A stretch of DNA of 64,000 nucleotides from Cyanobacteriota bacterium (GCA_046045965.1 JBJOKS010000002.1:32001-96000), one strand, 5' to 3'; counted from the stretch's first letter, positions 36,631 through 60,898 are shown. The notes: generated by a model from the letters alone, not told the origin. Program-made: numbers and translations.

Positions 36631-36657
36631 ATTATGCCTTTTTTTATTCCTTTGGTG

Positions 36658-38139: not shown

Positions 38140-38355
38140 TGTGTCTCTTGGGTTGATGATTATATTGTGTATATTTTTAGGTTAATCAATATTATACACA
38201 GTTGTGAATTTTTCTACACAGTTACAAAAAATAATAAATTACTTAGTATGCTGTATATGTAGGTAATGCCTAATTAATGTCGTATTTGTTACGGTAATTA
38301 TTTGTATTATTATGTATGGCGATGTGTTATTGAATAGCGATCGCTCTGCTTAGAC

Positions 38356-38447
38356 ATCGCTATTCTCGTGGGTTTGGTATAGGTGTCAAAAAATTTTTTC
38401 CCTATTTGCAACACAGGATCAAGAAGGAGCGTATATAAAGTAAGCCT
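38356..38447 (+). repeat. Left copy of ~92 bp direct repeat (3' end of CPBP gene plus promoter)
   Basis: About 91% identical by eye to 50894-50986; first 27 nt encode IAILVGLV*, the exact C-terminus of ORF 50309-50920. Confidence 0.9.
38407..38435 (+). promoter_or_regulatory. ECF-like promoter copy 1: TGCAAC-N17-CGTATA
   Basis: -35 at 38407-38412, -10 at 38430-38435. Confidence 0.75.
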
Positions 38448-38500
38448 ATTCTGTCCTAGCTTGTCTGATACAGATGTCAAAAAAAATTTTTTGAGTTTTT

Positions 38501-38529
38501 TGCAACATGAGGTGAATCTAGTGCGTATA
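38501..38529 (+). promoter_or_regulatory. ECF-like promoter copy 2: TGCAAC-N17-CGTATA
   Basis: -35 at 38501-38506, -10 at 38524-38529; upstream of the membrane-gene array. Confidence 0.78.
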
Positions 38530-38616
38530 TAGATTGTGGACGATATCAAACATCTGCATCCAGTTCAACAAGATACCTTGTTACTCCTAGAACATTCGTT
38601 TTAATTGCCTAACACT

Positions 38617-39348
38617 ATGTCAAATTCCATACCACCAGAAAATCAAACTTCTGATGAACTAACTAATAGAGATGATTTAGATTCTCCCTCAGCGGTTAAT
38701 TTTCCTACTTCCAATTCAAAACATCCACAGTTAGTAGTAGAAACTAGCAAAAACGCTGTTTTAGATGTCTGGAGTGCTTTAAAACTGATTTGGAATGATC
38801 CCAATAATGGACTACAAACGGCAATTAATAGTTTAGGAGATAGTCGAATTTTCTATGCGGGAATTGCCCTTTGTATTCTGTTTGTGTTATCTGTTTGGAT
38901 GGCAGCATTAAAAACTCTAGAATCTCTTGCACCGTTGTTTTCTTTCGGTGGTTTATTTGGTGCAAGTTATAGTACCCAGTTAAGTTTTTCAGAACAATTG
39001 CGAGTTATTTTAGCTGCGACAATTCCCGTATTAGGGATGATAGCAGTTTTGTGGATCACCCGCAAAATATTTAAAGGTTCTGGGAATTATCAACAATTCA
39101 CATTTGTTACAGGTTTTTGTTTTGCTCCTATTACCTTTTTGCTATTAATGCTGTGGTTATTAGGCAGTAATGCAGCAGAATTAATGGCGTTAATTTCTGT
39201 ATTTTGCTGGACTACATTTGTTTTATTTTTGAATACAGCACTAATAGGAGTGTTGGGTTTATCTTCTCGCAATGCACTATTACTTGTGCCGCTAGTTTTA
39301 GTGGCTGATTTTTTCATCACTAGAGTTGGTATTGATATTTTGTATTGA
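38617..39348 (+). CDS. Multi-pass membrane protein, Yip1-like
   Basis: About 5 TM segments; WITRKIFKGSGNYQQ loop resembling Yip1. ATG 38617 preferred over TTG 38605. Confidence 0.6.
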   Translation: MSNSIPPENQTSDELTNRDDLDSPSAVNFPTSNSKHPQLVVETSKNAVLDVWSALKLIWNDPNNGLQTAINSLGDSRIFYAGIALCILFVLSVWMAALKTLESLAPLFSFGGLFGASYSTQLSFSEQLRVILAATIPVLGMIAVLWITRKIFKGSGNYQQFTFVTGFCFAPITFLLLMLWLLGSNAAELMALISVFCWTTFVLFLNTALIGVLGLSSRNALLLVPLVLVADFFITRVGIDILY

Positions 39349-39369
39349 AACCAATTTGGGAATAATTAG

Positions 39370-39414
39370 CAACCTGTTGTACTTCAACCTGTTGTACTTC
39401 AACCTGTTGTACTT
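39370..39414. repeat. 15 bp tandem repeat (CAACCTGTTGTACTT)x3
   Basis: Read directly in the intergenic gap before the LemA gene. Confidence 0.9.
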
Positions 39415-39447
39415 CGTTATCATCAACGTTTTCATAAGGAGTCTATC

Positions 39448-40005
39448 ATGGGTCAAATATTTGTTTTTTTCCTGGCCATGCTGGGATTGTTAGGATATTT
39501 AGTATCGAAAATTTACAATGAAATGAATAGACTTAATTCCAGAGTGAACAGAAACTTTTCTGGAATAGATACACAATTATCCAGAAGACACGCTGTTATT
39601 AAAAAGTTGGTTAGTAGTGTTGGTGCAGAACAAAAAAACGTTATTAAACAGTTTGAAGAGTTGACTAATTTAGTGGAAAAAGCCAATTTACAACGGGGAA
39701 ATCAACAGGCTTTTCTTGATACAGAAAATCAGATATCAAGAATGTGGAATCAAATATTAAACTTACCACAACTCAAAAGTATACGCGGGTTTCAAGACCT
39801 CAATAAACAAATTGCTGAAATAGAAGAAGAAATTGCAGCAGCCAGAAGAACATATAACGATAGTGTTGAAAGATTTAACACTTATTTAGTGAGTTTTCCG
39901 GCTGGATTTATTGCACAACTTCTTTTCAAACAGTTTCAAGAAAAGGCTTATTTTCAAGCAACTGCTGAAGAAAGACAAGATTCTGATATAGATTTTAATT
40001 TTTAG
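39448..40005 (+). CDS. lemA: LemA family protein
   Basis: N-terminal TM; YN.M..L...V...FSGIDTQLSRR; IEEEIAAARRTYNDSV..FN....FP; AAGGAG RBS. Confidence 0.88.
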   Translation: MGQIFVFFLAMLGLLGYLVSKIYNEMNRLNSRVNRNFSGIDTQLSRRHAVIKKLVSSVGAEQKNVIKQFEELTNLVEKANLQRGNQQAFLDTENQISRMWNQILNLPQLKSIRGFQDLNKQIAEIEEEIAAARRTYNDSVERFNTYLVSFPAGFIAQLLFKQFQEKAYFQATAEERQDSDIDFNF

Positions 40006-40046
40006 GTTGCTGTTGTCATCAAAAATGAAATAGAGGTAGATAGAAC

Positions 40047-41282
40047 ATGGATGAAAAACATAGTTATGCAGTTGAGAGCTTCTTTACTGGTAATGCTTTC
40101 AATACTAGACTGATGGAAGTGGAAACTGCTAGACAGGAAAAAGTTAAAAATCAGTTAATTTTTGGGGGATTAATTTTAACTGCACGGATTGTAATTGGTA
40201 TTTTGGGTTGTAGTATTTTGACTTTCATAATCCTATTTTTTGTAGATTCAGGATTTTCTCATATTCTGGCTTCTCTAGTAGGTTCAGGTGTTATTTATGG
40301 GCTAATGCGTGGTATTGATTGGGCTAAAAGTCGTATTAATTTTTTTGTGAAAAAACATAACAATCTACTGTTTTATCTTCGTAAAGATGCAATTGAAGGC
40401 TTTGTAAAAATTATTTTTCCCAATGCAGAACAGATAATATTTGAACCACAGATTTCATCTAAGAATCAGATGCAACCGATATTAGCTAATTTGTTCTACA
40501 ACAAGCTTTATAAATATACAGAGAAAAACACGCTTTCATTTACAATTAATAAACGACCTTTTTACATAGCAGATGTAGAACCTGTATATATACTTAATTC
40601 CCAGAAAGAGTCTATTGAGATTGATAAATTTATGGATAGATATAATAGACAAACTGTGTGTTACTTTAAAGGCATTGCTTATCAAATGGAATATGAAAAA
40701 GAAAATCTCAATAGTAATTTTCTAACATTAATGATTCCTAAAAAAGCTGCACCTAGTCCCACAAAAAAAATCAGAGAAGACCGTAAAACAATTACAGTTA
40801 GTAAAGATTATCCTAGATTGGAACTTTTGAGTAGGGATAAACGCCGCCCAGAAAGATTTATCCAGCGTGGTTATGAGGAATATAGTGTAGAAAACATAGA
40901 AATGGAAGATAACTTCTATGTCTTTACAAACAATGAAAACGCTTCCAGAAAACTACTATCCTATCGGTTTATGGAGAAGATTGCAGAAATTACATCACCA
41001 AAAAAAGAAGAAATATCTCGACCAAAAGTAGTACAATTACTTTTAGGTAATCAGGAAAATACTCCTAATTTCTGGATGCAATTTATCAATATGACTCGCG
41101 GAAATAATAAACCATTACAGAAACTTACAGTTGTAACTACAAATAATAATTTGACTTTTTTTGAGCTAACAGGAGAAAAATCTTGTCAATTAGATAACTT
41201 TCTACACAACTTTCAAAAATTGGAGAACAGATTAAATTCAATAATTACTGCATTAAATGTAGTACCAACCACTGGAAATTGA
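40047..41282 (+). CDS. Membrane protein, DUF3137-like
   Basis: Two N-terminal TMs; VENIEMEDNFYVFTNNENASRKLLSYRFMEKI resembles the DUF3137 core; follows lemA. Confidence 0.55.
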   Translation: MDEKHSYAVESFFTGNAFNTRLMEVETARQEKVKNQLIFGGLILTARIVIGILGCSILTFIILFFVDSGFSHILASLVGSGVIYGLMRGIDWAKSRINFFVKKHNNLLFYLRKDAIEGFVKIIFPNAEQIIFEPQISSKNQMQPILANLFYNKLYKYTEKNTLSFTINKRPFYIADVEPVYILNSQKESIEIDKFMDRYNRQTVCYFKGIAYQMEYEKENLNSNFLTLMIPKKAAPSPTKKIREDRKTITVSKDYPRLELLSRDKRRPERFIQRGYEEYSVENIEMEDNFYVFTNNENASRKLLSYRFMEKIAEITSPKKEEISRPKVVQLLLGNQENTPNFWMQFINMTRGNNKPLQKLTVVTTNNNLTFFELTGEKSCQLDNFLHNFQKLENRLNSIITALNVVPTTGN

Positions 41283-41288
41283 TATGGA

Positions 41289-42035
41289 GTGATAACTATG
41301 GATTTGAATCTTCAAAATATTAATCTCTATATCTCAGAATCTGATGTGGTAAGAACTATCATTAATCAGCGTCTTCAGGAACTAAAATTGCAAGAACCCC
41401 GATTAAAATTAGTTTTTCCACGTGCAACACTCGCTTTTATTTGGTTATTTATGATCCTAGCATCTTCTGTTATGTTGGGAATTTCTGTAATTAGTTTTTC
41501 TCTCAATTTAATAGTGATATCCAAGGTATATTATGACTTTGGTATTTTTCTAGGATGTTTATTGTTAATACCTTTAATAGTTTCTTGGAGAAAATATTTA
41601 CAAACAACAAAAAACCACAAAAAGCAATTGCGTTTATCAAGAACAGAACCTATTAATATAATGGAGATAGAACACTATTTTTCTGAACAAAAAAGTAATT
41701 TTATCAGAACATATCAGGAATATGTAAAAAATGTGCATAAAAAGATAGAGAATATAGAAAAAAATCAGCATCTCAGTTCAACCACAGCAGATGAAGTGCA
41801 AAGTTTACAAAATAGAATTTCTCAAGCTATTGATAGACTAGAAATACTGAAAAATGATTACTTTTCACGGTTAGATAATGTGGAATTGGAATTAAAAAAT
41901 AGGCTGATTGACCATAAAAGCGATCAGGAAATAGAAGTAGTTATAGAGTCTCAAATTTTAGTAGAAAGATTAGAAGAAGAGGTAGAAGCTATTAATTATT
42001 ATTTACAAGCTGTGGATGAAATTGGTTGGAGATAA
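41289..42035 (+). CDS. Hypothetical protein, 2 TM plus coiled coil
   Basis: Two hydrophobic helices followed by a heptad-rich charged C-terminus. Confidence 0.7.
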   Translation: MITMDLNLQNINLYISESDVVRTIINQRLQELKLQEPRLKLVFPRATLAFIWLFMILASSVMLGISVISFSLNLIVISKVYYDFGIFLGCLLLIPLIVSWRKYLQTTKNHKKQLRLSRTEPINIMEIEHYFSEQKSNFIRTYQEYVKNVHKKIENIEKNQHLSSTTADEVQSLQNRISQAIDRLEILKNDYFSRLDNVELELKNRLIDHKSDQEIEVVIESQILVERLEEEVEAINYYLQAVDEIGWR

Positions 42036-42096
42036 TTTGCTGTTAGATTTTATCTAAAATTCAAATTTTGTCAACAAAAAATGAGGTAAAAATTTT

Positions 42097-42363
42097 ATGG
42101 GTTGTCTTGCTATTTTCCTAAATTTATTGTTTCCTGGGTTGGGAACTCTGTTATTTACCAATAAAAAAGTTGCAGGATTTATTCAGTTGTTGTTATGTAT
42201 TATTAACGATATCCTGATTTTAGGAACTCTAGGAATTTGGCTTTTCTTTGGTCTGTTCATTCATATAGGATTTTTTGCCTGGGCGTTAGCATCTACCATT
42301 GGTTTTATGAGTGAACGAGCAGCGAAAAAAGCAATTCAAGAAGAGAGGGAACGTCAAGGTTAA
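42097..42363 (+). CDS. Small membrane protein (TM2-like PGLG motif)
   Basis: LNLLFPGLG plus 2-3 TMs; GAGG RBS. Confidence 0.7.
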   Translation: MGCLAIFLNLLFPGLGTLLFTNKKVAGFIQLLLCIINDILILGTLGIWLFFGLFIHIGFFAWALASTIGFMSERAAKKAIQEERERQG

Positions 42364-42484
42364 TTTATGGCAAATTTACCCCATCGCATTCTAATCTAGC
42401 AATAATTTAATATCACGTTTGGTATTTACAAACAACAAAAGGCAGATTTGCCTGTCGTGATGAGATTATAAAAAGGAGAAAATA

Positions 42485-43585
42485 ATGAAGAGATTGACTG
42501 GATACCTCCTGATACTATCATTGTTAGCTAGTTGTGGAAAAAGCCCAGAACAAGCAAGAAAAGACCTGTTTGCAATGGGTTTACAATTTGATAAAAATAC
42601 TTTTTACCAAGTTACATATAAATGCGATCTCCTACCGATTGATGACTTTTTGATAGGAGGAATGGAACCAGGATATGGTTTACTAGGGGCATCTGAAGGT
42701 GGCTGTGTTCAAATTGTCAAGAAGTTAGTTAGTAAAACTAAAGATAAATCCTACTTAGCTAATGCTCTTTATGCTGCTGTAGATCAAGAGCCTCAACCTC
42801 AATACACAGAAATTATTAAGATTTTACTTAATGCAGGAGTAGACCCTAACATTAGTATTGAAAATAAACAATCTTATCTTACTGTTGCAGCAGAGCGAAA
42901 TAATCTGGAAGTAGTGGAATTATTAATTAATAAAGGAGCTAATCCTCAAGATATTGATGGTGTAAACTCCTCAGCTTTAGTTGCTGCTGCTGCTAAGAGC
43001 GAAGAAATCACAAAAATTTTACTTGATAAAGGGGCAAACCCTAGTTCTGTAGGATGTGGTGACAACCATTGCACAGCTTTATCGCAAGCTGTTTTATCAG
43101 GAAATCAAGCGACTGTGAAGTTGTTATTAGATAAGGGAGCAGTGGTTAAAGATGGTAAAGATGGTAACTCTCTGTCATTAGAACAAGCAGTATATATATC
43201 TAATCCAGACCTGATCAAATTATTAGTCAATGCAGGGGCTGATCCCAATCAAAAAGGTTCTTGGAATCATTCTTTACTTGTCGGTGTGGTCAAAAGATAT
43301 GACGTGAATCTACCAATCCTCAAAGCTCTTTTGGAAGCAGGAGCAAAACCTAATGAGGAAGATGGCAACTCTTTGGCTTTGTCTGAAGTAGTACGATATA
43401 GGCAAAATGCTGAAGCAGTAGAACTTTTATTAAAACATGGTGCTAATCCAAATACAATTTCATCGGTTTTTATCAATACACCTAGAACTGTATTGGATGA
43501 GGCTTCAAGTGAAATCGCTGTAATTTTAAAGAAGTATGGAGCAGTTTCTGGTAATCAGCTTAATAAATCAAAACCACAAAGTTAG
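42485..43585 (+). CDS. Ankyrin-repeat lipoprotein
   Basis: Lipobox LLASC; about 7 repeats of L..A....V.LLL..GA.PN; AGGAG RBS. Confidence 0.88.
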   Translation: MKRLTGYLLILSLLASCGKSPEQARKDLFAMGLQFDKNTFYQVTYKCDLLPIDDFLIGGMEPGYGLLGASEGGCVQIVKKLVSKTKDKSYLANALYAAVDQEPQPQYTEIIKILLNAGVDPNISIENKQSYLTVAAERNNLEVVELLINKGANPQDIDGVNSSALVAAAAKSEEITKILLDKGANPSSVGCGDNHCTALSQAVLSGNQATVKLLLDKGAVVKDGKDGNSLSLEQAVYISNPDLIKLLVNAGADPNQKGSWNHSLLVGVVKRYDVNLPILKALLEAGAKPNEEDGNSLALSEVVRYRQNAEAVELLLKHGANPNTISSVFINTPRTVLDEASSEIAVILKKYGAVSGNQLNKSKPQS

Positions 43586-43685
43586 TTTGGTAACAATTTT
43601 AGCAGAAGTGTAGAATGCTAAAAAAACTACCATAAAAATTGCCAAATATTCAAATTATCCAAATAGCCAACACAAGGATTAGTAT

Positions 43686-44165
43686 ATGCAGGTAAATCAA
43701 ATAATTGCTACTGGGTTAATTATCACCAATATTATTTTCTTGTTTTCATCAGTAGCAGAAGCACAAAACACAAAATTTACTGTTGAATGTAATGCAGCTT
43801 TACAAAGGGCAAAAAAACAAATTCAAAAAAATAGAAAAGTCAAAGTTGTTCATACAGATCAAGAAGATATTTCTCAACATTACAAACATGACAAAAGCTA
43901 TCCTCAAAATCGTCCATTTTCCTATGAGTTTGGTTTGAGAGGAGCAGCGACAGAATCTATCTTAAATTCTGATAAGTTATTAACTATAATTGCCAAAGAC
44001 ATTATAGATAATTGTCCATCAATTAGCATGATTAAATTTGGAGAATATGCAACTGATCATGGTGGGGCTATCGGTTTATTGAGAAATAACAAAGTTGAAC
44101 CTTTTGAATGTGTCGATCCAGGAGAAAACATCAAATTAAGTTGGGGACAAATCGTTTGCATTTAG
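43686..44165 (+). CDS. Secreted hypothetical protein
   Basis: Signal peptide ending AEA; four Cys. Confidence 0.7.
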   Translation: MQVNQIIATGLIITNIIFLFSSVAEAQNTKFTVECNAALQRAKKQIQKNRKVKVVHTDQEDISQHYKHDKSYPQNRPFSYEFGLRGAATESILNSDKLLTIIAKDIIDNCPSISMIKFGEYATDHGGAIGLLRNNKVEPFECVDPGENIKLSWGQIVCI

Positions 44166-44208
44166 ATAACAGATAATAGCTAACAAAACTTATTTATTTG
44201 GACAAAAA

Positions 44209-44742
44209 ATGAAAACCTTGTTTATCAACTTCACAATAACAACTGCATTAATTACAGTTATGTCACCTTTAGCATTTGCAGCACCAAAATCAGGATCAAA
44301 ACTTCCTTCAGGTGCTTATTATACTCCAGGAAGTATGTTTAATAATTCTTGGAGAGAGATTTTAAATCGTAATGGAAAAATTTGCATCAAAATAATTGAT
44401 GGACCTCCTAGTAATACAAAAGGACTAGAAGAAATAATGATTAGTAGTGTATCAAATCGAGGAGGTAAACTTTATATTGATGGTAAAAATCAGGAAATTC
44501 AGATAGACAGAGTAAGTAGAAAAAATCCACAGTATGAATTTTTAAGTCCCAGTGACTTTAACAGTATTCTAGCTGCTTTTGGTGATAATACTGGTGGTGC
44601 TGCTGCTTGGGTATTGTTTACAGGAAATAATTCTGATTCTCGTACTACTCCAGAGCAAAATAAGAGAATGCAGGAATGTATAAATACTAAAGGTAAGTAT
44701 GTCCGCAAAATCAAAGGTAGAATGCTGCAAGGACAATTTTAG
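44209..44742 (+). CDS. Secreted hypothetical protein
   Basis: Signal peptide ending AFA. Confidence 0.7.
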   Translation: MKTLFINFTITTALITVMSPLAFAAPKSGSKLPSGAYYTPGSMFNNSWREILNRNGKICIKIIDGPPSNTKGLEEIMISSVSNRGGKLYIDGKNQEIQIDRVSRKNPQYEFLSPSDFNSILAAFGDNTGGAAAWVLFTGNNSDSRTTPEQNKRMQECINTKGKYVRKIKGRMLQGQF

Positions 44743-44833
44743 ATAATAAAAGAATTGAACAAAATGCAAAGAAATTTTAGCCAGTTAACAAGATTTTTGA
44801 TAATGACTTTTGTTAAAATACAGGACTAAATTT

Positions 44834-45340
44834 ATGAAATTTTCCCAGCTTAAAAACATCATTCTATGCTTCATATCTTGGTTTGGCTGGTTAGCATATA
44901 TCATCTGGAGTTTGTGTTATCTGATCTTGATGATATCTGTAGGTGTAGTCATACTAATTATACCCATCATAGCTTATATATTTTTTGCCATTACTTCTGT
45001 TATGTCCAGACTGGTACTAGGAGCGATAGGAATTGGTGATAATTACACTAACTATAATAGCCAATTTGAACTTACTCCCAGCGATAGTATAGGCTATACT
45101 CTGACGAAAGCTATAACATCTATTGTTCGCTTTATCTTTAAGCTAATTTTTGTACTACCTCTTAAATTATTTATTGGTAGTTATACAGGTATGTCAATGG
45201 AAACCCCTATAGCTGAAATTCCGGGTTATATATTAGAAAGTATTAGCTATTTACGTCCTCCACATCGTTTCAGCTTTTACAGTGGTATTATCAGTTTTCC
45301 ATTGATAATTGCAGTCTATTTTTATTTTACTAAAACCTGA
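44834..45340 (+). CDS. Hypothetical membrane protein
   Basis: Several TM segments; ATG 44834 preferred over TTG 44810. Confidence 0.65.
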   Translation: MKFSQLKNIILCFISWFGWLAYIIWSLCYLILMISVGVVILIIPIIAYIFFAITSVMSRLVLGAIGIGDNYTNYNSQFELTPSDSIGYTLTKAITSIVRFIFKLIFVLPLKLFIGSYTGMSMETPIAEIPGYILESISYLRPPHRFSFYSGIISFPLIIAVYFYFTKT

Positions 45341-45356
45341 AAATTTTTCCCCTTTT

Positions 45357-45385
45357 TGCAACACGGAATGAATCTGGTTCGTATA
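45357..45385 (+). promoter_or_regulatory. ECF-like promoter copy 3: TGCAAC-N17-CGTATA
   Basis: -35 at 45357-45362, -10 at 45380-45385; downstream leader identical to copy 2. Confidence 0.78.
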
Positions 45386-45448
45386 TAGATTGTGGACGAT
45401 ATCAAACGTCAATCAATCTGTAAATACAATAATGGGAGGAATAATTAC

Positions 45449-45997
45449 ATGAAAACCAAAATACTATTCAACATGAGCGTGGTTTTAATACTAATTGGTG
45501 TTAATTTACTGCCAGTTTATGCTCAAAAAGACAATAATCGGAGTTATATTGGACTCCGCTACCTTGGTCCCCGTCTTCCTTACACCCTTCCAGTGTACCT
45601 TGACCACCCCAAGGGTATTCAATATTTTGGTAGCTGGACAGTTGACGATGCTGAATATCCAAAACTACCCATATATGGAATCAGTCGTGTTAAAAAGGGA
45701 AACCAGGAAATGTTATGGTTGGAAATGGTTGTAGATAGAGACAGAAAAGGAAATCCAAGTAAATGGTTAGTTCTAGATGTATTCAATGTTCCTAAAACGG
45801 ACAAATCCTCAACTTTTGCCTATTCTTGTCAACGTAATGGTGTTGGTGATCCGGGAATAATTGTGATCGCTAAACTTCAAAATTCCCAAGATTTAAGGCA
45901 AATTCAAAAAGCTTGGCGTGCTAATCAGAAAACAAGAAAGTTTGAACCAATTAGTACCAAAGGTATAGTTTGTCAAAACCTGGATCTTTATCCTTAA
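45449..45997 (+). CDS. Secreted hypothetical protein
   Basis: ATG 45449 with GGGAGGA RBS; signal peptide ending VYA; C-terminal KAWRAN..T.KFEPISTKGIVC. Confidence 0.75.
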   Translation: MKTKILFNMSVVLILIGVNLLPVYAQKDNNRSYIGLRYLGPRLPYTLPVYLDHPKGIQYFGSWTVDDAEYPKLPIYGISRVKKGNQEMLWLEMVVDRDRKGNPSKWLVLDVFNVPKTDKSSTFAYSCQRNGVGDPGIIVIAKLQNSQDLRQIQKAWRANQKTRKFEPISTKGIVCQNLDLYP

Positions 45998-46061
45998 TAC
46001 AGCAATAATAATTCAATTTTTATTAATAGGGATGGTGTAGATTAAATACTAACTCTATAAG

Positions 46062-46256
46062 TCAGCCTCTGGAAACTGCTCTATCGCTAATTTCATCCAT
46101 CAATTTACCAAGAAAATCAACTTCCTCATTCAGATCCTCTCGTAAAAATAAACTAACCAGCGTTACCAAAGATTGCTTTTTCCGTTCTGTTGCTTTTTGA
46201 TAGGCTTGAGCAACTTTAGGACTCACTTTGATTGTAATTTCTTCACTAATCTGCAT
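46062..46256 (-). pseudogene. Probable truncated orphan antitoxin-like small gene
   Basis: ITIKVSPKVAQAY...LMDEISDRAVSRG resembles small cyanobacterial TA antitoxins but ends abruptly; no toxin adjacent. Confidence 0.45.
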
Positions 46257-46323
46257 AGTCAAGACTTGTTGATAGTATTGGTATTATTATATCGGATCAG
46301 GGCGATTGCAGCGATCGCTCTCC

Positions 46324-46363
46324 AAAAAATTATCAACAAATATAAAAAACTATCAACAAATAT
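46324..46363 (+). repeat. 20 bp tandem repeat AAAAAAYTATCAACAAATAT x2 abutting promoter copy 4
   Basis: One mismatch between the copies; inverted core TTGTTGATAG at 46266-46275. Confidence 0.85.
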
Positions 46364-46364
46364 T

Positions 46365-46393
46365 TGCAACACGAGTTAATTATTTTTCGTATA
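46365..46393 (+). promoter_or_regulatory. ECF-like promoter copy 4 (autoregulatory position): TGCAAC-N17-CGTATA
   Basis: -35 at 46365-46370, -10 at 46388-46393; 54 bp before the preferred sigma ATG. Confidence 0.78.
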
Positions 46394-46447
46394 AATAGTA
46401 GAGATATTGTATACTTAATGATGTTATTACTACAATGTCATAAGTCT

Positions 46448-47110
46448 ATGGATGATTTCAACCTCCACCTGCAATCTCTCATTCAAGAAGCTTGCACGTA
46501 CCCCAAAAACACCCCCCAGCATCGTAAAGCAATTAACAATTTGCTCCGATCTCTCCTGAAATCAGGACGTATTTGGAGGCCACCAGCAGGGAATGATAAC
46601 AACAAGGATATTTATGAAGAAGCATTACAAAAAACTCTGATTGATTTAGACAATAAAACATTATTTGAGAAATACGATCCAAATCAAGGTTCATTCCTAC
46701 CTTGGTTTAACAGATGTTTAGAAAACAAGTACAAAGATGAAATAAGAAAAGTTAAGCGTTATCAAAAGCGGATACAGTCTGTCTTAGAAAATGATGAAAT
46801 TTATATTGATCCATCAGAGCAAATTGTTTCTACCATAGATGCAACCTTACTCACTCCAATTTGGGAATCATTTGTACAATGGATTAAAGAAGATCCTGAT
46901 AATATTCTGAAAGATTGTCACATCAGAAATAACCCAAAAGCTAACTGTCAATTATTTGCTGAATTGAACCGTATCCAAGGAAAAAAATGGAAAGAAATAG
47001 CTGATGAAGTTGGATCACCGCAGGGTTCGTTGAGATCCCATTGGAATAGAAAATGTGAACCATTGCTGCAAAAATGGTTAGAAGAAAATCAAAAATTATT
47101 GGGAGAATAA
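46448..47110 (+). CDS. ECF-like sigma-70 family factor (HetZ-related type)
   Basis: Sigma2-like DIYEEALQKTL...KYDPNQGSFLPWFNRCLENKYKDEIRK; sigma4 HTH GKKWKEIADEVGSPQGSLRSHWNR. The track start at 46364 overlaps the -35 box, so ATG 46448 is preferred. Confidence 0.8.
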   Translation: MDDFNLHLQSLIQEACTYPKNTPQHRKAINNLLRSLLKSGRIWRPPAGNDNNKDIYEEALQKTLIDLDNKTLFEKYDPNQGSFLPWFNRCLENKYKDEIRKVKRYQKRIQSVLENDEIYIDPSEQIVSTIDATLLTPIWESFVQWIKEDPDNILKDCHIRNNPKANCQLFAELNRIQGKKWKEIADEVGSPQGSLRSHWNRKCEPLLQKWLEENQKLLGE

Positions 47111-47114
47111 AACT

Positions 47115-48047
47115 ATGAATAATAAACTAGATAAACTAAATGTATTACATGATCTAGCTATTCCCTTTCCCATTAGTGCATCATTTCGTCACCAAGCTAG
47201 AACATACTCAGCACAATATTTTACACCAAATCTTCAACAAAGAATTTATTTGAATACCTTAGCTGTATTTGTTGCTGATGCTTATTTGCGGATGCTCGGT
47301 TTTAAGACTAATCTCAATCAACCAGAAAGATGGAATCCCATCCTTCGTTTATGGAGTGAAGCTAACGAATTAGAATTATTAGGATTGGGTAATTTAGAAT
47401 GTTGTGTGATTGCAAAAGATCAGGAAACATTAATTTTACCATCTGATACTGTTAGTAATAACATCGGCTATTTATTTATAGAAATTGCTGATTCAGAAAA
47501 ACAAGCCGTCTTAATAGGTTTTTTACCTGATTTTGATACTGAAGCTGCTAATGAAGAAGTAAAAATCACCGATTTACAATCTATGGATGATTTAATTGAT
47601 TATTTATCTCAAAAAGAAACATCTTCCCTAGCAGCAACAGCAGCAATTGATGAGCTATCCCTAGAATTTGCTGAAAAAAAAATTACTTATTTAAGAAATT
47701 GGTTGAATAATATTTATGAGGGAGATTGGCAACCCTCAATGCGCGATCTGAAAAATGCTACCTGCAACAAAAATATCTCCCTAGCAGGACAAATATTTAA
47801 AATGCAGCTTTCCGTTTCTCAAAACAGTGAGGAATTAGTTACTGTTAGAGTCATTGTCCAGAGTGAAAATACTCTTTTACCTATGGGTATGCAGGTGAGT
47901 GTACCAGACGAATCTGATATTTATACAGAAACAGTTGATCAACCTGCGGATTTGATATCTATACCCCTAGAATTATCTCCAGGTGATGAATTTTGGGTAG
48001 AATTGCGGTTAGGAGAAACCTTTGTTAGAGAATATTTCATTGCTTAA
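47115..48047 (+). CDS. DUF1822 family protein (candidate anti-sigma factor)
   Basis: YLNTLAV..A..YL..LG, LGNLEC, IGYLFIEI, LIGF and L.NWL......WQ motifs; 4 bp after the sigma stop. Confidence 0.78.
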   Translation: MNNKLDKLNVLHDLAIPFPISASFRHQARTYSAQYFTPNLQQRIYLNTLAVFVADAYLRMLGFKTNLNQPERWNPILRLWSEANELELLGLGNLECCVIAKDQETLILPSDTVSNNIGYLFIEIADSEKQAVLIGFLPDFDTEAANEEVKITDLQSMDDLIDYLSQKETSSLAATAAIDELSLEFAEKKITYLRNWLNNIYEGDWQPSMRDLKNATCNKNISLAGQIFKMQLSVSQNSEELVTVRVIVQSENTLLPMGMQVSVPDESDIYTETVDQPADLISIPLELSPGDEFWVELRLGETFVREYFIA

Positions 48048-48059
48048 ACAGGAGTTTCT

Positions 48060-50306
48060 ATGACTTGGAAAATCTCCTTTAAAATTGGTGGTAGAGTACA
48101 ACTGAATAATTCTGAACTTTTACCAGTCACCCTTGCTATTTATGATCAAGATGGACAAATAGAAGAACTGGTTTCTTTTCTTTCTCCTCTCCCACAATCT
48201 TTATCAAATAAGTTTAAAGATTGGCAAGATTATATTGGTTTACAAGGAGATAGAAAAGTTCCAAAAAATCGGGAAAATCGGACTTCTGGAGTAATTAATC
48301 TCACAGAATTAGCCAATTCTTTGAAAGCAGAATTAAACAAATGGTTAGGTAGAGATGGTTGGGTTGATGAAAATGGAAAACCAGATCCCCGTGTGAGTTT
48401 AGTTTTAGAAAAATTCCGGGAGAAAATAACTCAAAAAGATGAAGTTCAGATTATTGTCCAAACAGAAGATCGACAATTGCGGGGTCTTCCTTGGCAAGAA
48501 TGGGATACTTTGGCAGGGTATACTAGCAGTGGTGTAGAAGTTGCTATTAGTGCGACTAATTTTAAACGGTTGACGCAAAAGCAAACCCCACAATTAAAAG
48601 CAACTGCTCGGATATTGGTGGTATTTGGTGATGAAAAACTTGATTTTGCAGAAGAAATCAGTTTTATTAAAAGTTTGGAACAACATGGTGGTGATCCCCA
48701 TATCCTTAGACAACCTACACGCAAACAGTTAGAAGAGAAATTACAAGATAGTCAAGGTTGGCACATTTTCTTTTTTGCTGGCCATAGTGAAAGCGATCGC
48801 AATGGACGTATTGGACGGATTCAAATTAATCCCGCCGATGGGGAAGAAGGAATTATTGAAATTGCTGAATTGAAAGATTTATTAGCAGGTACAATTCAGA
48901 AAAAGTTACAAATAGCTATCTTTAATTCTTGTGATGGTTTGGGATTAGCAAATCAATTAACTGAGCTATCTTTGCCTTATTGTATTGTTATGCGCGAAAG
49001 GGTTGAATCTACCGTAGCTAGAGAATTATTAAGGCATTTTTTGGAGGCATTTGTACAAGATCGCTCTTTATTTGCATCTATGAATTATGCCAGACAACAG
49101 TTACAAAAGAAATTTGAACCCGGTAAAAGTTGGCTTCCTGTAATTGTTGCTAACCCCTTAGCGAAAGAAGTAACTTGGAATCGTTTATTTTCTGAAAGAA
49201 GGTTATCTTGGCAATGGGAAATATTTTTAGGAATGATAGCGATCGCCATGCTTATTTGCCTACCTCTTGGTATATTCACTGAATTTAATGGACGGGAAAC
49301 TTTAACACTTTACGCTCAACTTTATCCGCACATTACAGTTTATCCTTCCCTGTTTCTTTGGATGTCTCTATTTGCAGCTTATAGAGCGCATTGTATGATT
49401 AGAGTGCAAACACGCTCTTTTTTAATTTTAACATTGGTGACAATTTTTATGACTTTCGCTGCATTATTTTTTGAGCTTAATGGCGATCGCATGATGTTAT
49501 TAGAATTTAATTACCAAGCGATGACAACAATTAAAGCTGAAAATCTTGAAAAACTCTATTCAGATTGGGGAACTTCACAAGCAGAGATTAAAAATATTCC
49601 CCAGGGAATTTTTAATATTCATCAATCTTTTGATAATCAAGGAAATTTAATCATTAAAAAATCAGAGTTAGAACCAGCTATAAAACGATTGCAAAAAAGC
49701 AATAATAAAACTGCATTTCAAGGACTTTTTAGAATTGCTACATCTTATCAAGTGTGGCAACAAAATTATCAAGCATTTTCTCTAAATAGATGGTTTTACG
49801 CTCTAAATTTTCTCAGTATTGTTGCTTGTGGTATGCAGATTTTAGCACTGGTTTCCAATATTCTGTTTGTTCCAGATTCTATTTTTAATAAAAATAAATA
49901 CTTGACATATTTGATTATCTGTGAGTTGGGTATTCTCCTATGGTTGCCTTTTCAAAGTTACACCATAGAACATACCAAAAGTCTCTTATTCTCATATAAT
50001 TTTCGAGGTTCTCTAGCTGGAATGAATGTGATTATTTATGCGATTATTACTATACTGTTTTTTACCACTATTAGCAGTATCTATAAAAGTGCTACCAAAA
50101 AATATCAACCTATTTTGTTGTCATTTTTATTAGGTAGTTTAGGTTTGACTTTACTGAGTAGTATTTTTGGTGTTTCTTTGATTGATCATCTATTTGGGAT
50201 CAGCAGTACCGATCCTTTGACTCCTTGGTTTGCAAGTATCGTTTTTTCTGCTCCTTTATTTTTCTTACTTGTGCGTTGGATTGATTTACGAGTAGGTGAT
50301 GATTAA
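48060..50306 (+). CDS. CHAT (caspase/HetF-like) protease with C-terminal multi-pass membrane sensor domain
   Basis: LPWQEW; catalytic His242 in FFFAGHS and Cys291 in IFNSCDG; IVMRE; then about 7 TMs with a ~110 aa loop. Confidence 0.88.
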   Translation: MTWKISFKIGGRVQLNNSELLPVTLAIYDQDGQIEELVSFLSPLPQSLSNKFKDWQDYIGLQGDRKVPKNRENRTSGVINLTELANSLKAELNKWLGRDGWVDENGKPDPRVSLVLEKFREKITQKDEVQIIVQTEDRQLRGLPWQEWDTLAGYTSSGVEVAISATNFKRLTQKQTPQLKATARILVVFGDEKLDFAEEISFIKSLEQHGGDPHILRQPTRKQLEEKLQDSQGWHIFFFAGHSESDRNGRIGRIQINPADGEEGIIEIAELKDLLAGTIQKKLQIAIFNSCDGLGLANQLTELSLPYCIVMRERVESTVARELLRHFLEAFVQDRSLFASMNYARQQLQKKFEPGKSWLPVIVANPLAKEVTWNRLFSERRLSWQWEIFLGMIAIAMLICLPLGIFTEFNGRETLTLYAQLYPHITVYPSLFLWMSLFAAYRAHCMIRVQTRSFLILTLVTIFMTFAALFFELNGDRMMLLEFNYQAMTTIKAENLEKLYSDWGTSQAEIKNIPQGIFNIHQSFDNQGNLIIKKSELEPAIKRLQKSNNKTAFQGLFRIATSYQVWQQNYQAFSLNRWFYALNFLSIVACGMQILALVSNILFVPDSIFNKNKYLTYLIICELGILLWLPFQSYTIEHTKSLLFSYNFRGSLAGMNVIIYAIITILFFTTISSIYKSATKKYQPILLSFLLGSLGLTLLSSIFGVSLIDHLFGISSTDPLTPWFASIVFSAPLFFLLVRWIDLRVGDD

Positions 50307-50308
50307 AT

Positions 50309-50920
50309 ATGGAAAATCAGCAATTATATCAAGAACGAAAAAAAGTAATTCTGATTGTATTTTTTGCCTACATTCTGCCAGTTTTACTTGTGTTTTTAGA
50401 ATTAATTCCTTTTTCCTGGCGGTTTTATGTGCTAATTTTGGCGGCTATATTGGTAGTAGGAATCGCCTACCTATACCGATTTTCTCCTGTAGAATTGGGA
50501 TTTACAAACAATAACTTGGGAAAATCTTTGACAGCGATAGCCATACCAACATTAATTTTTGCTGGGTTGATGTTTGTTTATTATTTGACTCATGGATCGC
50601 GCATAGACAACTCAGCATATCAATGGATATTTTACCTTTTCTTTGTGGGTGTATCTTCTCCCATACAAGAATTTTTATATCGCGGGTTTTTATTTGCTAT
50701 TTTTAAGAGAGCAAAATTTGCCCCTTGGGTACAGATTATACTTTCTACCTTACTTTACAGTTTTGTGCATCTGATTTATAGAGATATACCCACGCTGGTA
50801 TTTACATTTATTATTGGTATATTTTGGGGCTGGAACTACGCCAAGTTTGGTAATTTATATAGTGTCATTATTAGTCATTCTTTATTAGGAGCGATCGCTA
50901 TTCTCGTGGGTTTGGTATAA
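50309..50920 (+). CDS. CPBP (CAAX/Abi) family intramembrane glutamic protease
   Basis: QEFLYRG (EExxxR variant), FVH, HSLLG; multiple TMs. Confidence 0.85.
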   Translation: MENQQLYQERKKVILIVFFAYILPVLLVFLELIPFSWRFYVLILAAILVVGIAYLYRFSPVELGFTNNNLGKSLTAIAIPTLIFAGLMFVYYLTHGSRIDNSAYQWIFYLFFVGVSSPIQEFLYRGFLFAIFKRAKFAPWVQIILSTLLYSFVHLIYRDIPTLVFTFIIGIFWGWNYAKFGNLYSVIISHSLLGAIAILVGLV

Positions 50921-50986
50921 GTGTCAAAAAAATTTTTTTACTATTTGCAACACAGGATAAACAGAGAGCGTATATAAAGTAAGCCT
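50894..50986 (+). repeat. Right copy of ~92 bp direct repeat, beginning inside HIP1 (50891-50898)
   Basis: Matches 38356-38447. Confidence 0.9.
50946..50974 (+). promoter_or_regulatory. ECF-like promoter copy 5: TGCAAC-N17-CGTATA
   Basis: -35 at 50946-50951, -10 at 50969-50974. Confidence 0.75.
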
Positions 50987-51073
50987 GTTTAAGAAATTAC
51001 ATCTCAAATAATTAGATGATTTCTTTAAGAGGTTATCTGCAAAGTTTTCGACGAATATAAAAAAGGTGACATC

Positions 51074-51139
51074 ATGACTATTACTGGTGATTCTAAAAAT
51101 AACCTGACTTGCATCTCTGCTCCTCAAAAAACACAATAA
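51074..51139 (+). other. 21 aa small ORF or truncated gene start downstream of promoter 5
   Basis: AAGGTG RBS then MTITGDSKNNLTCISAPQKTQ*. Confidence 0.35.
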
Positions 51140-51144
51140 TAATT

Positions 51145-51179
51145 TTGTAGGGGTAAAGCACTTTGCTAAACCCTTACAA
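51145..51179. repeat. REP-like hairpin TTGTAGGGG...CCCTTACAA, possible terminator
   Basis: Imperfect inverted repeat just beyond the cheA-like stop. Confidence 0.55.
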
Positions 51180-51193
51180 TTACCAACCATAAA

Positions 51194-54100
51194 TTATTTA
51201 CCAGCCGCTATTAACCCCTGATTCAAACTACCACTATTACTGTTTGCTAAACTTTCCACAGTAGAAAGAAGTTCATGCTCTAAATAAGGCTTAGTTAAAT
51301 AACCAGTTGCACCCAATTCTTGAGCTAACTGACGATGTTTTTCAGAACTACGAGAAGTGAGAATCACAACTGGTTTGTTAGACCAATCTTTATGTTGACG
51401 GATATGGCTTAATAATTCAAATCCATTCATCCGAGGCATTTCCAAATCAGAAATGATCACTTCAATTTCTGGATGTAACTCCAATTGTTCAATTGCTTCT
51501 ATTCCATTTTGGGCTGAAAATACTTGATAGCCATACTTTTGCAAAGTCATAACAATAGTTTGTCGGACACTAATAGCGTCATCTATGATTAAAACTACTT
51601 TTGGTAATTTTGGTGTTATCCCTGCATAGGAATTTGGTAGAGACTCGATAGTATTTACAGCAGCAGATGCAGCCAGTAGCGGTGTAGATGATATAGATAT
51701 ATGATCATCCGACATAGGCAAAGCTTGTTTCTGTAACCCAGAATTTGTGGGTAGAGTCCTAACATCAAGTGTGGCTTGCATCTGTTGAGAATCTATCAAC
51801 ATAGTGCCATCAATCACTAAAATCAGGTTGCCATTAGCTAAACTACTACAACCATAAATGTATTTTGGTGGAGTAATGGCACTGCCTAAAGGTCTAATTA
51901 CTAACTCTTGTTCCCCGATAATTTGGTCAACTTCTAAACCTAAAATTCCCTGATTGCGTCTAAGCAGAAGCACAGGATTTTTCATGATTTCTGTATCAGC
52001 ACTTTTGGGGATATTATTTATATAATTGCTGCCAACAATTGAACCATTGTAATACACCAAACTTTCCAGTTTTATGAGGTTAACAACCATTTCTTCCTCA
52101 CCGGAATGCCAATATAAAATTTGTTTGCCTTCAAAATCTTTGATTTGCTGTTCAGAGGGAATTAGTATTTTCTCGATACTATCTAGCAGTAAGGCATAAA
52201 CAACACCCCCGGACTGGACTAGCATTAGTTTATCTGTGGTCATAGAAAAGGGGATTTTAAGTATAAATGTTGTTCCTTGATTGGGCGATGATTGCACTGA
52301 AATCACGCCATTAAGAGATTGCAACTGAGTACGGACAATATCTAATCCCATACCACGTCCAGAAATTTCGCTCACCTTAGCAACGGTGGAAAATCCAGGT
52401 GAAAACATGAAATCAATCAGTTCGGATTCAGTTTGGTGATAATAGCCTTGAGTGTGATTATCATCTGGTATGAGATTAAGTTCAATAGCTCTCCTACGAA
52501 TACTTTCTAAATTTAAACCTTGACCATCATCTCTAACTTCAATAATAGTTTGATTTCCTTGATGATAGGCACAAATTTCTATTAAACCTTGTGGTTTTTT
52601 GCCAAGTTCACGGCGCATTTCTGGAGATTCAATGCCATGATCAAAAGCATTACGAACTAATTGCAATAGCGGATCATATAGTTTTTCGGCAATGGCTTTA
52701 TCTATGGGAACTTGTGTACCAGTGAGTTTTAATTCTACACTTTTTGCGTAAACATTGGCTAGATTGCTGACCATTAGCGGAAAGCGATTTAAGATAGTTC
52801 CTAAAGGCAGCATTCTGGCATCTGCTAGGTTATCTATAATGCTCAAAGTTAAATTATATTTTTTCTCACTAATTTGAGCAGATTGTTTAATTAGTAAGTC
52901 CAGAGATTCAGATGTTTCTTGTAGTTGTAGTGTTTCCTCTAGTGCTTCATGTAATGTCAGATTAAATTCTGTATAGACATCCATTTCTAGAGCATCAAAT
53001 TGGACAGCCGAAACTTTTTGGCTGGTTTCTATAGAAAAATTATTTCCCTGTAAAGGTAAATCACGTAATTGTTGTAAAACTGCTTGATGTCGGCTTAATT
53101 TCTGACTTAATTGCTCAATTAATTCTATAATCTGTTCATCATATAAAGTGCGTCGTTTTTGGTAAATGAGTAGTTCTCCTGTCAAGTAATTGAGGCGTTC
53201 TAATCCCTCCACGTCTACACGCACAAAGGAAGATTGTCGGGAATTCTTGTTGGGGGATAGTGAGGATTTATCTTCTGCTTCTCTATTTTTGGTTTCGGTA
53301 TCATCGGTAATCACTTCATAGTTTGAATCAGGAGTATTGGCAAATACCTGATTGCTGACAACTGATGATGTCACACTTTCTAAATAATTATCATTTTTAA
53401 TTTTTTCGGCGGTATGGGTTAACAGATCTTGCTCGGCTGTTTCTGGGATGGTGTCTCCTCCCCATATTTCTTCTACTAGATTATAGTCAGTGGGAGTAAC
53501 TACGGGGGGGGATATTTCTTTAATAACTAATAATTCTTGTAACTTGGGACTGTCAAGCCATTTTTTTTCTGACTCTGTAACAGGAGGATAATTTTTATAT
53601 TCTTTGCCTAATTTGCGGATTTGTTTTCTCAGGGCGCTGATAATTGATATAGCATTATCATTCTTTTTAACTGCATACTCAAATTCAGCTACAGCTAGGA
53701 TAATTATTAAGATCACACCCCGACGATAAAGGCAAAGGTTCTGCTGATCTTTTTCATCTTTAATAAAATCTAGAAATTGATTGAGCCAAATTTCTACATA
53801 ATCTTCGGAATCATCTTGATGATATGGAGGAATTAATAAATCTAAACTCAGTTCTGATTCGGGTATTCTTCTCTGGTGATTAAACCAGCCCAAAATATAG
53901 CGAATTACTTTTAAGTAAAATTTAGCATTTGCTGGTTTTAAAGGCTCATTACCTCTGTCACCAGACGTAATTAAAAACTGGTAAAATTCAGTGGTGATGC
54001 TGAAGAATTTGTTAGCAAAAGAGTTATTTGTATGAGTAATTCCCGTCTCATTTTTGGGAACTGTTACTAAAGAGCTAGTAGTTGGTGTAACAGGTGATTC

Positions 54101-54907: not shown

Positions 54908-54908
54908 A

Positions 54909-55118
54909 AGAGTCAGGAGTCAGGAGTCAGGAGGCATGAGGCAGGAGGCAGGAGGCAGGGGAGGCAGGGGAGGCAGGGGAGGCAGAAGGCAGGAGGCAGG
55001 GGAGGCAGGAGGCAGGAGGCAGGGGAGGCAGGAAGCAGGGGAGGCAGGGGAGGCAGGGGAAGAATTATATATAACCTGTACCTAGTACCCAGTACCCAGT
55101 CTCCAGTCCCCAGTCCCC
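54909..55118. repeat. Compound STRR tract (GAGTCAG, GAGGCAG/GGGGAGGCA, CCCCAGT)
   Basis: Read directly between the MCP and cheA genes. Confidence 0.9.
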
Positions 55119-55123
55119 ATCTT

Positions 55124-60085: not shown

Positions 60086-60178
60086 TTGCCTAACCTCAAT
60101 AATTTTTTAGTTACTAATAATTTCAAGTTTTGATCCAGAAATTAAATTTTTCAATGCTAAGATGCAAATTACCTGTTA

Positions 60179-60658
60179 TTAGTGATGACTACTCCACATT
60201 GGTGATTGGATAATTGCCAGCGCATCTAAATTGAAAATCATTTGCTCTGAACCATTAGTAATGTATCCCTGCAAAAAAGGTGACATTGCTGGATAAAATA
60301 GGTCAGGAGAGGGAATCTTCATTTGCTCAGTATCCAACCACTCAATATCTGTCAATTGGCGCACCATCAACCCCAAATATTTACCCTCGTGTTCTAGCAC
60401 AATTGCCATCATTTTAGTGAGTAAATTTGAACCCTGCAAAAGAGGTGGATAACCTAACATTTCTTCTAAATCAACTAACCACAGCATCTCGCCACGCCAA
60501 CTATATATACCTAAAACGCAATTTGGCATCTGTGGAACTACGCAAATTTCGCTTAATGATATCCGTAATACTTCTGAGATATGCTGTAAGGAAATTACGG
60601 CTTGATCCCGCACTCCTAAATTAAAACTTAAGAATTTTTGTTTGGTTTCCAAGGTCAA
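60179..60658 (-). CDS. cheW: CheW adaptor
   Basis: VPQMPNCVLGIYSWRGEMLWLVDL. Confidence 0.9.
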   Translation of the reverse strand: MTLETKQKFLSFNLGVRDQAVISLQHISEVLRISLSEICVVPQMPNCVLGIYSWRGEMLWLVDLEEMLGYPPLLQGSNLLTKMMAIVLEHEGKYLGLMVRQLTDIEWLDTEQMKIPSPDLFYPAMSPFLQGYITNGSEQMIFNLDALAIIQSPMWSSHH

Positions 60659-60898
60659 TTTCCTTTTTAATTAGATGATTTTTTAGCCACTATTTCATGA
60701 TTAAAGCTCAATATAAATAGTGACTATTGATTTTTTGGGAATTTGGGAATTAATGAAGTATTTTAGTAAGTATTCAGGATATACAAGGAATCAAAGTTTT
60801 TCGAGTCGAGCTTGATAATTTCTGAAAAAACTTGCTCATCTATATTCTTGATGCAAACAAATATTCTGACTCTTGACTCCTGAATTCTTACATATTTT

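Follow-up and report, generated by a model that had tools for sequence, protein, structure and literature searches.

What do a divergent extracytoplasmic function (ECF)-like sigma factor, a DUF1822 protein, a membrane-anchored CHAT protease and a CPBP-family membrane protein do together when they are encoded by four adjoining genes? This question is raised by a locus of Cyanobacteriota bacterium (GCA_046045965.1 JBJOKS010000002.1:32001-96000; assembly of 5.29 Mb, 92% complete), and the window below refers to the whole 64,000-nucleotide (nt) stretch that was analysed. With a rough probability of 60%, the four-gene module works as a protease-gated sigma switch. As proposed, DUF1822 would hold the ECF-like sigma inactive, and the CHAT protease would, on a signal, cut DUF1822, likely after Arg210. 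The sigma would be released by degradation of the DUF1822 N-fragment and would then transcribe its own operon and nearby exported-protein genes from TGCAAC-N17-CGTA sites, while the CPBP protein would partner the protease in the membrane without being catalytic itself.

The four genes (Table 1) had been described in a sequence-only reading as a tight operon with its own promoter copy, and this is borne out by the open reading frame (ORF) calls, with gaps of 4, 12 and 2 bp, and by a motif match (P4) upstream of the sigma gene. A longer sigma ORF from an alternative TTG start would overlap P4. Pfam matches above cut-off were obtained for DUF1822 (E 1.3e-59), CHAT (E 1.5e-10) and Rce1-like (E 1.6e-14). 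The sigma matched RpoE (2q1z) at E 0.024, and the profile of a long DUF1822-linked sigma group matched it at E 1.8e-5, against 0.086 for the reversed sequence. A bipartite promoter 5' of its own gene and an adjoining, co-transcribed anti-sigma candidate, as expected of an ECF (group 4) sigma, are both found.

It is very probable from comparative evidence that this sigma reads the TGCAAC-N17-CGTA motif, as first proposed. Five exact matches to TGCAAC-N17-CGTATA occur in the window, compared with 0 in 100 shuffles, and they are the only exact matches in the 5.29-Mb genome. The matches are real; however, the earlier count of five functional promoters is not supported. Counted by their repeats, the five sites are three independent sequences. 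The repeat unit at 50894-50989, which recurs around P1, includes the last CPBP codons, and 38484-38554 repeats 45340-45410 (71 nt at 83%), the segment shared by the sites at 38501 and 45357. P5 has no target gene: it faces the 3' end of a convergent cheA-like ORF (51194-54907), and the next co-oriented ORF is 3.9 kb off. In many relatives cargo genes begin at the position of P5.

Comparison with 36 further loci displays the same association. TGCA[AG][ACT]-N17-CGTA lies no more than 250 nt upstream of the sigma gene in 23 of 25 sigma-bearing loci. A matrix trained on these 23 upstream sites and scanned in the 25 loci, window included (474 kb), gave 62 sites, present in all 25, all on the operon strand and all scored as intergenic; 39 lie outside the training set, and the background in the genome is about 1 per Mb per strand. 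In the seven loci without this sigma (L020, L030-L035), there was no plus-strand match and one weak minus-strand match; L020, from which the sigma is deleted, had no match. Decayed loci (L021, L028, L037-L039) retain one or two sites. Across the genome, 16 sites score at least 16 bits; the top 5 all lie in the locus, and 9 of the 11 others break the TGCA or CGTA core. Moreover, the -35 element is TGCAAC at 18/18 sites in the six loci of the closest clade, where the sigma-4 helix reads [QS]GSLR[SP]HW (printed for 5 of the 6). In the other 19 loci a G stands at that position ([T]GCAG/ACAG) at 43 of 44 sites, with a helix reading RG[AV][VI][TS]SHW (printed for 12). The two changes fit a cognate sigma/promoter pair.

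The role of DUF1822 as anti-sigma of the locus sigma, which the sequence-only reading had put forward for examination by structure prediction, is probable from the modelled complex. The sigma-DUF1822 model reached an ipSAE of 0.78, against 0.00 for the best of 3 controls; the mark applied is passed by 116 of 157 solved complexes and by 2 of 215 mismatched pairs. At least 86% of contacts are shared between model runs, with a partner pLDDT of at least 78. A search of PDB sequences gave no DUF1822 relative, so the score is unlikely to reflect a memorised structure. The contacts lie at residues 54-68 and 192-211 of the sigma and at residues 14-168 of DUF1822. From the general layout of ECF sigmas and the RpoE match, we take the two sigma segments to be the region 2 core-binding helix and the -35 recognition helix, so the interface spans regions 2 and 4. 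Additionally, the N-domain disappears together with the sigma in L030-L034, where a 179-185-aa (amino acid) protein replaces the sigma and DUF1822 is reduced to a short new head, the Arg linker and the C-domain.

DUF1822 had been read as soluble and two-domained. No hydrophobic segment was found at Kyte-Doolittle 1.6 or above, and two domains can be seen in the model. The N-domain has the core fold of PD-(D/E)XK nucleases, and the D...(D/E)xK catalytic triad is absent: position 97 is C in 60, R in 24, Q in 4 and H in 2 of 92 orthologues, the motif positions being assigned by secondary structure, without residue-level superposition. Identification as a TPR protein is unsupported for this protein, the fold search and model giving a nuclease fold plus a beta-sandwich.

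For the protease, His242 and Cys291 are retained as first reported and are invariant in 70/70 aligned proteins. In the model, aa 1-178 form an alpha+beta lobe and CHAT occupies about 180-375, giving the two-lobed Csx29/separase fold; the EACC2 lobe was assigned by architecture and by a purpose-built profile over 58 modules. The HetF N-lobe plus CHAT matches the protease family profile at E 1e-26, and MSERIP of HetF aligns with MRERVE of the locus CHAT protein. HetF is reported to cut PatU3 at R117/S118 (PMC9457339), and this Arg117 is retained in 140 of up to 145 PatU family sequences. Arg210 of DUF1822 is present in 92/92 orthologues, a count that leaves out 4 distant alignment rows, whereas 208, 209 and 211 are variable. 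In a diverse DUF1822 set, scored in the 66 of 82 sequences having the anchor, one linker column contains 44 Arg, 6 Lys and 13 gaps, in the context [FLM]R[SNG]. The DUF1822 of the window has a gap at this column because its linker is shorter, and R210 is equated by position. On this conservation, Arg210 has about an even chance of being the cut site. The acidic/Ala linker, which had been pointed out earlier, is present, but is less likely to be the cut region: residues 162-191 span 12-34 aa in the 92 orthologues and vary in sequence.

The CHAT domain is fused, as originally described, to a multi-transmembrane (TM) region with a large loop. Eight long helices are seen in the model, versus 6 by hydropathy. 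The membrane region is presumably what senses the input, and the odds that the signal is extracytoplasmic appear balanced. The CPBP protein belongs to its fold family (PF02517, 54.4 bits against a cut-off of 22.4), with motifs Q120-E121-x3-R125 and H190-x3-G194; QExxxR and HxxxG occur in 31/31 aligned copies. CPBP proteases use the first Glu of EExxxR for catalysis and the Asn of HxxxB to form the oxyanion hole (PMC13692083). Both the catalytic first Glu and the Asn/Asp of HxxxB are missing from all 31 copies. With Gln in place of the catalytic Glu, the earlier description of CPBP as a protease does not stand, and a PrsW-like site-1 protease is ruled out; the protein is likely to be a non-catalytic accessory membrane partner of the CHAT protease.

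Several points weigh against the proposed switch. The sigma is a recognisable ECF-like sigma by its profile matches, with scores below the curated cut-offs (Sigma70_r2, 20.5 bits against 24; TIGR02937, 35.8 bits against 42.9, E 5.9e-9 over aa 28-206). The promoter sites have spread by duplication, and the correspondence between the -35 variant and the helix is a single evolutionary event, hence not independent evidence. The single-chain model places Arg210 in a predicted strand (206-210), a possible structural reason for its conservation, and fewer residues separate it from the preceding Trp than in most family members. Among the 13 of 66 aligned DUF1822 sequences with a gap at the Arg column, 11 form a helical-insert class found mostly beside a CHAT gene, and a protease-less subfamily (L073, L074, L080, L082, L083, L092) keeps an R[SG] linker. 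Cleavage of DUF1822 by the CHAT protein is suggested by analogy and seems somewhat better than an even prospect. The loop at aa 475-575 is the least conserved part (0.69 versus 0.73-0.86), and if aa 428-445, missed by hydropathy, do not cross the membrane, the large loop would be cytoplasmic.

Part of this evidence could be explained if the CHAT protein cleaved itself, or merely docked the DUF1822 C-domain, and the sigma were freed without cleavage of DUF1822. Autopeptidase activation has been proposed for such systems (PMC8195603), as has self-cleavage for DdvA, a TPR-CHAT anti-sigma (PMC11506125). Arg210 is not within the sigma-binding domain, a difficulty that Csx30 also poses, and one DUF1822 class beside CHAT genes is without an Arg linker. 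HetF and Csx29, however, each cut a separate sigma inhibitor, and where the N-domain and regulator have been exchanged, the Arg linker and C-domain are still found beside the protease gene, which makes this course unlikely. A little less probable again is that CHAT cuts the DUF1822 anti-sigma but the input is read by CPBP or intracellularly, or that the protease is constitutive and sets a basal level. Other family members have extracellular ligand-binding domains at the same position (CHASE2, Peripla_BP_6, PBP) and the cargo is mostly exported, both of which favour an outside signal. In support of the other inputs, CPBP accompanies the membrane domain in variants with and without the sigma and is found in 0/80 other DUF1822 loci; the non-catalytic CPBPs Abx1 and CflP tune sensor kinases (PMC13692083), the loop topology is uncertain, and the isolated HetF CHAT is reported to be active in vitro.

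The nuclease fold also brings to mind a defence effector, in which the PD-(D/E)XK domain would be released by cleavage as a nuclease, with the sigma as antitoxin or amplifier. Remnants of D..E-x-R/K are family-wide (among 81 sequences, position 85 is D in 39, 95 is E in 56, and 97 is R in 57 or K in 15), and the distribution is patchy and partly plasmid-borne. Yet the position of the catalytic Lys is Cys in 60 of the 92 orthologues, Lys not being among the four commonest residues, the putative motif-I Glu helix position (matched by eye) is Asn in 74/81, and the cargo resembles secreted and membrane proteins rather than defence enzymes; a released nuclease is accordingly given little credence. 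AAC and CGT elements are frequent in ECF promoters, and the locus sigma is divergent, so that a host group-4 sigma could conceivably read the motif with the locus sigma as bystander. The five best matrix hits of the genome all lie in this locus, the motif is gone where the sigma is gone (L020, L030-L035), and the -35 variant follows the sigma clade, leaving this the least probable of the alternatives to the protease-gated switch.

The sequence-only reading had presented the locus as a new signalling system. Neighbourhoods of EACC2-caspase, ECF sigma and DUF1822 were already catalogued computationally by Kaur, Iyer, Burroughs and Aravind (eLife 2021; PMC8195603), with the same triad and the same variable C-terminus, including multi-TM forms. 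By its EACC2-CHAT architecture, multi-TM C-terminus and adjoining ECF sigma and DUF1822, the module is one of these neighbourhoods. In section 9 of that paper DUF1822 is called a TPR protein, and an anti-sigma role, cut site and promoter are absent. A CRISPR-free membrane chain of CHAT, anti-sigma and ECF sigma has, moreover, been shown in parts for HetF/PatU3/HetZ. In the literature searched, with subscription journals mostly outside its scope, no bench test of DUF1822/CHAT/sigma modules was found, nor any statement of DUF1822 as anti-sigma, nuclease fold or PatU relative. The present additions to prior work are the sigma-DUF1822 binding model, the DUF1822 fold, the candidate cut site, the PatU link, the promoter code and the dead CPBP.

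By analogy, the module likely works like HetF/PatU3/sigma-HetZ of Anabaena PCC 7120 and is not its orthologue. HetF is described as a CHAT protease that is independent of CRISPR and has a TM domain plus periplasmic TPRs (PMC9457339), and PatU3 as an inhibitor of the ECF-type sigma HetZ (PMC13342950), in an article without mention of HetF, CHAT or DUF. The locus CHAT scores 23.8 bits on the HetF model NF045509, against a cut-off of 1200. HetZ models did not match the locus sigma at E 0.01, and the genome's hetZ is elsewhere (C54). HetZ homology in searches of the single sequence against profiles (E 0.04-0.09) was no better than in reversed controls and was rejected. HetZ is a developmental regulator; the locus genes make up a single operon, with the cargo close by on a patchily distributed island. 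A hetF above cut-off was not found in the 92% complete assembly despite the presence of hetZ-patU (C54); all three congeners have hetF, and an assembly gap is the probable cause.

In type III-E CASP, Csx29 cleaves the sigma inhibitor Csx30 (PMC10028731). That protease is a TPR-CHAT protein, whereas the locus CHAT is without a TPR hit and has a membrane region instead of activation by Cas7-11/RNA. The locus sigma scores 22.4 bits on the CASP-type sigma model NF041236 (cut-off 100), and Csx30 is not among the fold-search matches listed for DUF1822. A scan of window proteins gave no cas family, and 36000-52000 contained no array; Cas7-11 was not searched for elsewhere in the genome. In DdvA/DdvS of Myxococcus xanthus, a periplasmic CHAT lies within the anti-sigma itself and RseP is the second protease (PMC11506125); by prediction, the locus CHAT is cytoplasmic and the anti-sigma a separate soluble protein. 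Abx1/CflP of group B Streptococcus are CPBPs which, as here, are without the first Glu of EExxxR, and they act on a membrane sensor. Their partner is a histidine kinase (PMC13692083), while the partnership of CPBP and CHAT in the locus is suggested by gene order only.

The C-domains of DUF1822 and PatU appear, on profile evidence, reasonably likely to share a common origin. The DUF1822 C-domain profile gave more than 5 bits for 46/145 PatU tails, versus 7 reversed, 1 shuffled and 2/445 unrelated ORFs; in the reverse search, the PatU profile matched 5/81 DUF1822 sequences versus 0. The hhalign comparison gave E 7e-4 to 1e-3 at a probability of 22-27%, with reversed values of 0.035-0.04. In the Atlas, with DUF1822 clusters excluded, the top two were PatU clusters at 0.80, a value that shuffled proteins reach one-third of the time, and PatU had been named beforehand. 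No PatU match to the DUF1822 N-domain was found. A more tentative proposal is that DUF1822 and PatU make up one superfamily of cleavable sigma inhibitors, with a swappable regulator-binding head and a constant Arg-cut linker and beta-sandwich docking on CHAT proteases. If this were true, the heads would comprise a dead PD-(D/E)XK fold here, TRADD-N in sister loci and a helical domain in PatU. On that view cyanobacteria would have a large set of receptor-protease sigma switches, from which HetF/PatU3/sigma-HetZ would have been domesticated, and the locus would represent a variant whose receptor-caspase is polytopic, whose CPBP co-receptor is protease-dead and whose promoter code can be read. 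The PatU link, if true, would explain the origin of the heterocyst commitment switch, and a domain of unknown function would gain a function. DUF1822/CHAT/sigma modules are common in cyanobacteria. The locus supplies parts for tests (promoter, sigma, predicted inhibitor surface, predicted cut residue, catalytic Cys), and cyanobacterial engineering would profit from orthogonal sigma/promoter pairs under the control of membrane receptor-proteases.

Table 1. Features of the locus, in window coordinates
Feature	Position	Strand	Description or basis
ECF-like sigma, divergent	46448..47110	+	220 aa from ATG; region 2 ~aa 54-104, region 4 helix-turn-helix ~aa 181-204
DUF1822 protein, predicted soluble anti-sigma factor	47115..48047	+	310 aa
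DUF1822 N-domain core (aa 38-173)	47226..47633	+	PD-(D/E)XK nuclease fold, degenerate active site (E85, E95, C97)
DUF1822 C-domain (aa 206-310)	47730..48044	+	beta-sandwich; outside sigma interface; kept when N-domain swapped; weakly PatU C-domain-like
Arg210 codon, candidate P1 cleavage residue (W205-QPSM-R210-D)	47742..47744	+	invariant in orthologues; linker column; HetF analogy
CHAT-TM protein	48060-50306	+	748 aa
Cytoplasmic protease module (aa 1-378)	48060..49193	+	pseudo-protease lobe (EACC2) and CHAT domain
CHAT catalytic residues	His242 48783-48785; Cys291 48930-48932	+	dyad intact
Membrane region (aa 384-744), candidate sensor	49209..50291	+	6-8 TM helices, 100-aa loop (aa 475-575); no Pfam family
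CPBP/Abi-family membrane protein, likely non-catalytic	50309..50920	+	203 aa
P1 promoter copy	38407-38435	+	inside 38356..38450 copy of CPBP 3' end
P2, second promoter 5' of cargo operon	38501..38529	+	motif match
P3, promoter copy related to P2	45357..45385	+	motif match; D5 83%
P4, predicted autoregulatory ECF-type promoter 5' of sigma gene (-35 TGCAAC, 17 nt, -10 CGTATA)	46365..46393	+	motif match
P5, promoter copy directly after CPBP stop	50946..50974	+	motif match
CPBP 3'-end copy (reads ..AILVGLV*) carrying P1	38356..38450	+	direct repeat of 50894-50989 at island's opposite end; D1 89%, D3 95%
Predicted cargo operon, nine genes	38605..45340	+	Yip1-like, LemA, DUF3137, two membrane, ankyrin with signal-like N-terminus, two secreted-type, membrane protein
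Secreted-type protein behind P3, no Pfam family	45392..45997	+	ORF call, Pfam, N-terminus

The genes behind the promoter sites vary between species. A hydrophobic N-terminal stretch is present in 53 of 65 promoter-linked ORFs, versus 34% of 426 non-core ORFs (the targets being counted in this background), and this enrichment agrees with the earlier view of local genes as outputs. Named cargo across loci, from a domain scan of 27 proteins (two of them non-cargo) plus the window proteins, includes LemA, Yip1-like, ankyrin, CsgG, COP23, trypsin-like, M48, TPR-CHAT proteases, DUF4833, WD40 and RTX/Hint. Directly behind the motif, L004:8918-16198, L017:12170-19057 and L158:9170 onward encode giant RTX proteins that include a Hint domain. 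The GC content of the island is 33-34%, compared with 37-38% in the flanks. With its repeated promoter segments and the targetless P5, the island looks rearranged. Predicted sigma-70 promoters and terminators were no more numerous than in shuffled sequence. Four RNA runs, available as contigs only, covered island and flanks alike, with DNA contamination possible, and the joint of an excised circle was not seen in them.

The membrane region defines an 83-protein family in a large database. It was found in 37 of 389 genomes of the taxonomic family, in 0/3 other congeners and on 3 plasmids. Plasmid C of Trichormus variabilis ATCC 29413 carries a copy of the locus (AVA_RS28195-28180). Among the 36 compared loci, 24 have a full-length clade sigma followed by DUF1822, CHAT-TM and CPBP. 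CHAT is split in L005 and L029, and CPBP is fused and shortened in L036, where a deletion has put the CHAT-TM gene into one reading frame with the CPBP C-terminus (L036:7439-9637). Most of the sigma is lost from L020, the sigma of L021 is broken, and L028 and L037-L039 are fragmentary. The distant form L035 lacks CPBP and carries, 3' of its CHAT gene, a stand-alone duplicate of the membrane region (367 aa). In L030-L034 the short DUF1822 head resembles TRADD-N, and it may form a split TRADD-N fold with the tail of the preceding protein (by eye).

DUF1822 matched 98 of 151 sampled genomes of the phylum, with up to 11 in one genome; 49 of the 98 are weak single hits from one family of small genomes. 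In a sample of 80 hand-picked DUF1822 loci, a sigma-like gene lies upstream in 76, in two similarity groups of 38, many without any NCBIfam match, and an EACC2+CHAT gene lies downstream in 56. Some loci carry trypsin-like, C14 or M48 proteases instead of CHAT. The C-termini elsewhere include CHASE2, Peripla_BP_6, PBP, nSTAND1-WD40, TPR and pentapeptide domains (49 of 72 downstream genes scanned), so that triads with variable sensor domains, as anticipated, do exist across the sample. The protease-less subfamily has sigmas of 390-450 aa, and its DUF1822 may be cut by a protease encoded elsewhere. A second triad is present in the same genome (C5:73901-84938; sigma 226, DUF1822 343 and CHAT 1859 aa; linker GGYRS). 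After it come two small proteins whose repeats look leader-like, an ABC exporter of the peptidase type and an HlyD-like gene (the last three by eye); the output may be bacteriocin-like.

Other features were seen around the island. L004 and L006 also contain the intergenic stretch 38170-38539, there 3' of the CPBP gene. Divergent from P1/P2, the minus strand of 35509-38139 encodes a LuxR-type helix-turn-helix-STAND ATPase fusion (493 aa) and a TPR protein (373 aa). Three exact 15-nt tandem copies occur at 39370-39415, between the Yip1-like and lemA genes. A chemotaxis-like cluster occupies the minus strand of 51194-62787, with a CheA-like protein and a multi-GAF chemoreceptor (by eye) and a response regulator; P5 could yield antisense RNA against the 3' end of the cheA-like gene. 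Finally, positions 1-28611 contain a nonribosomal peptide synthetase cluster with aminotransferase, cupin, MFS, penicillin-amidase-like, FecCD, ExbB and TonB genes, which likely serves siderophore synthesis and uptake.

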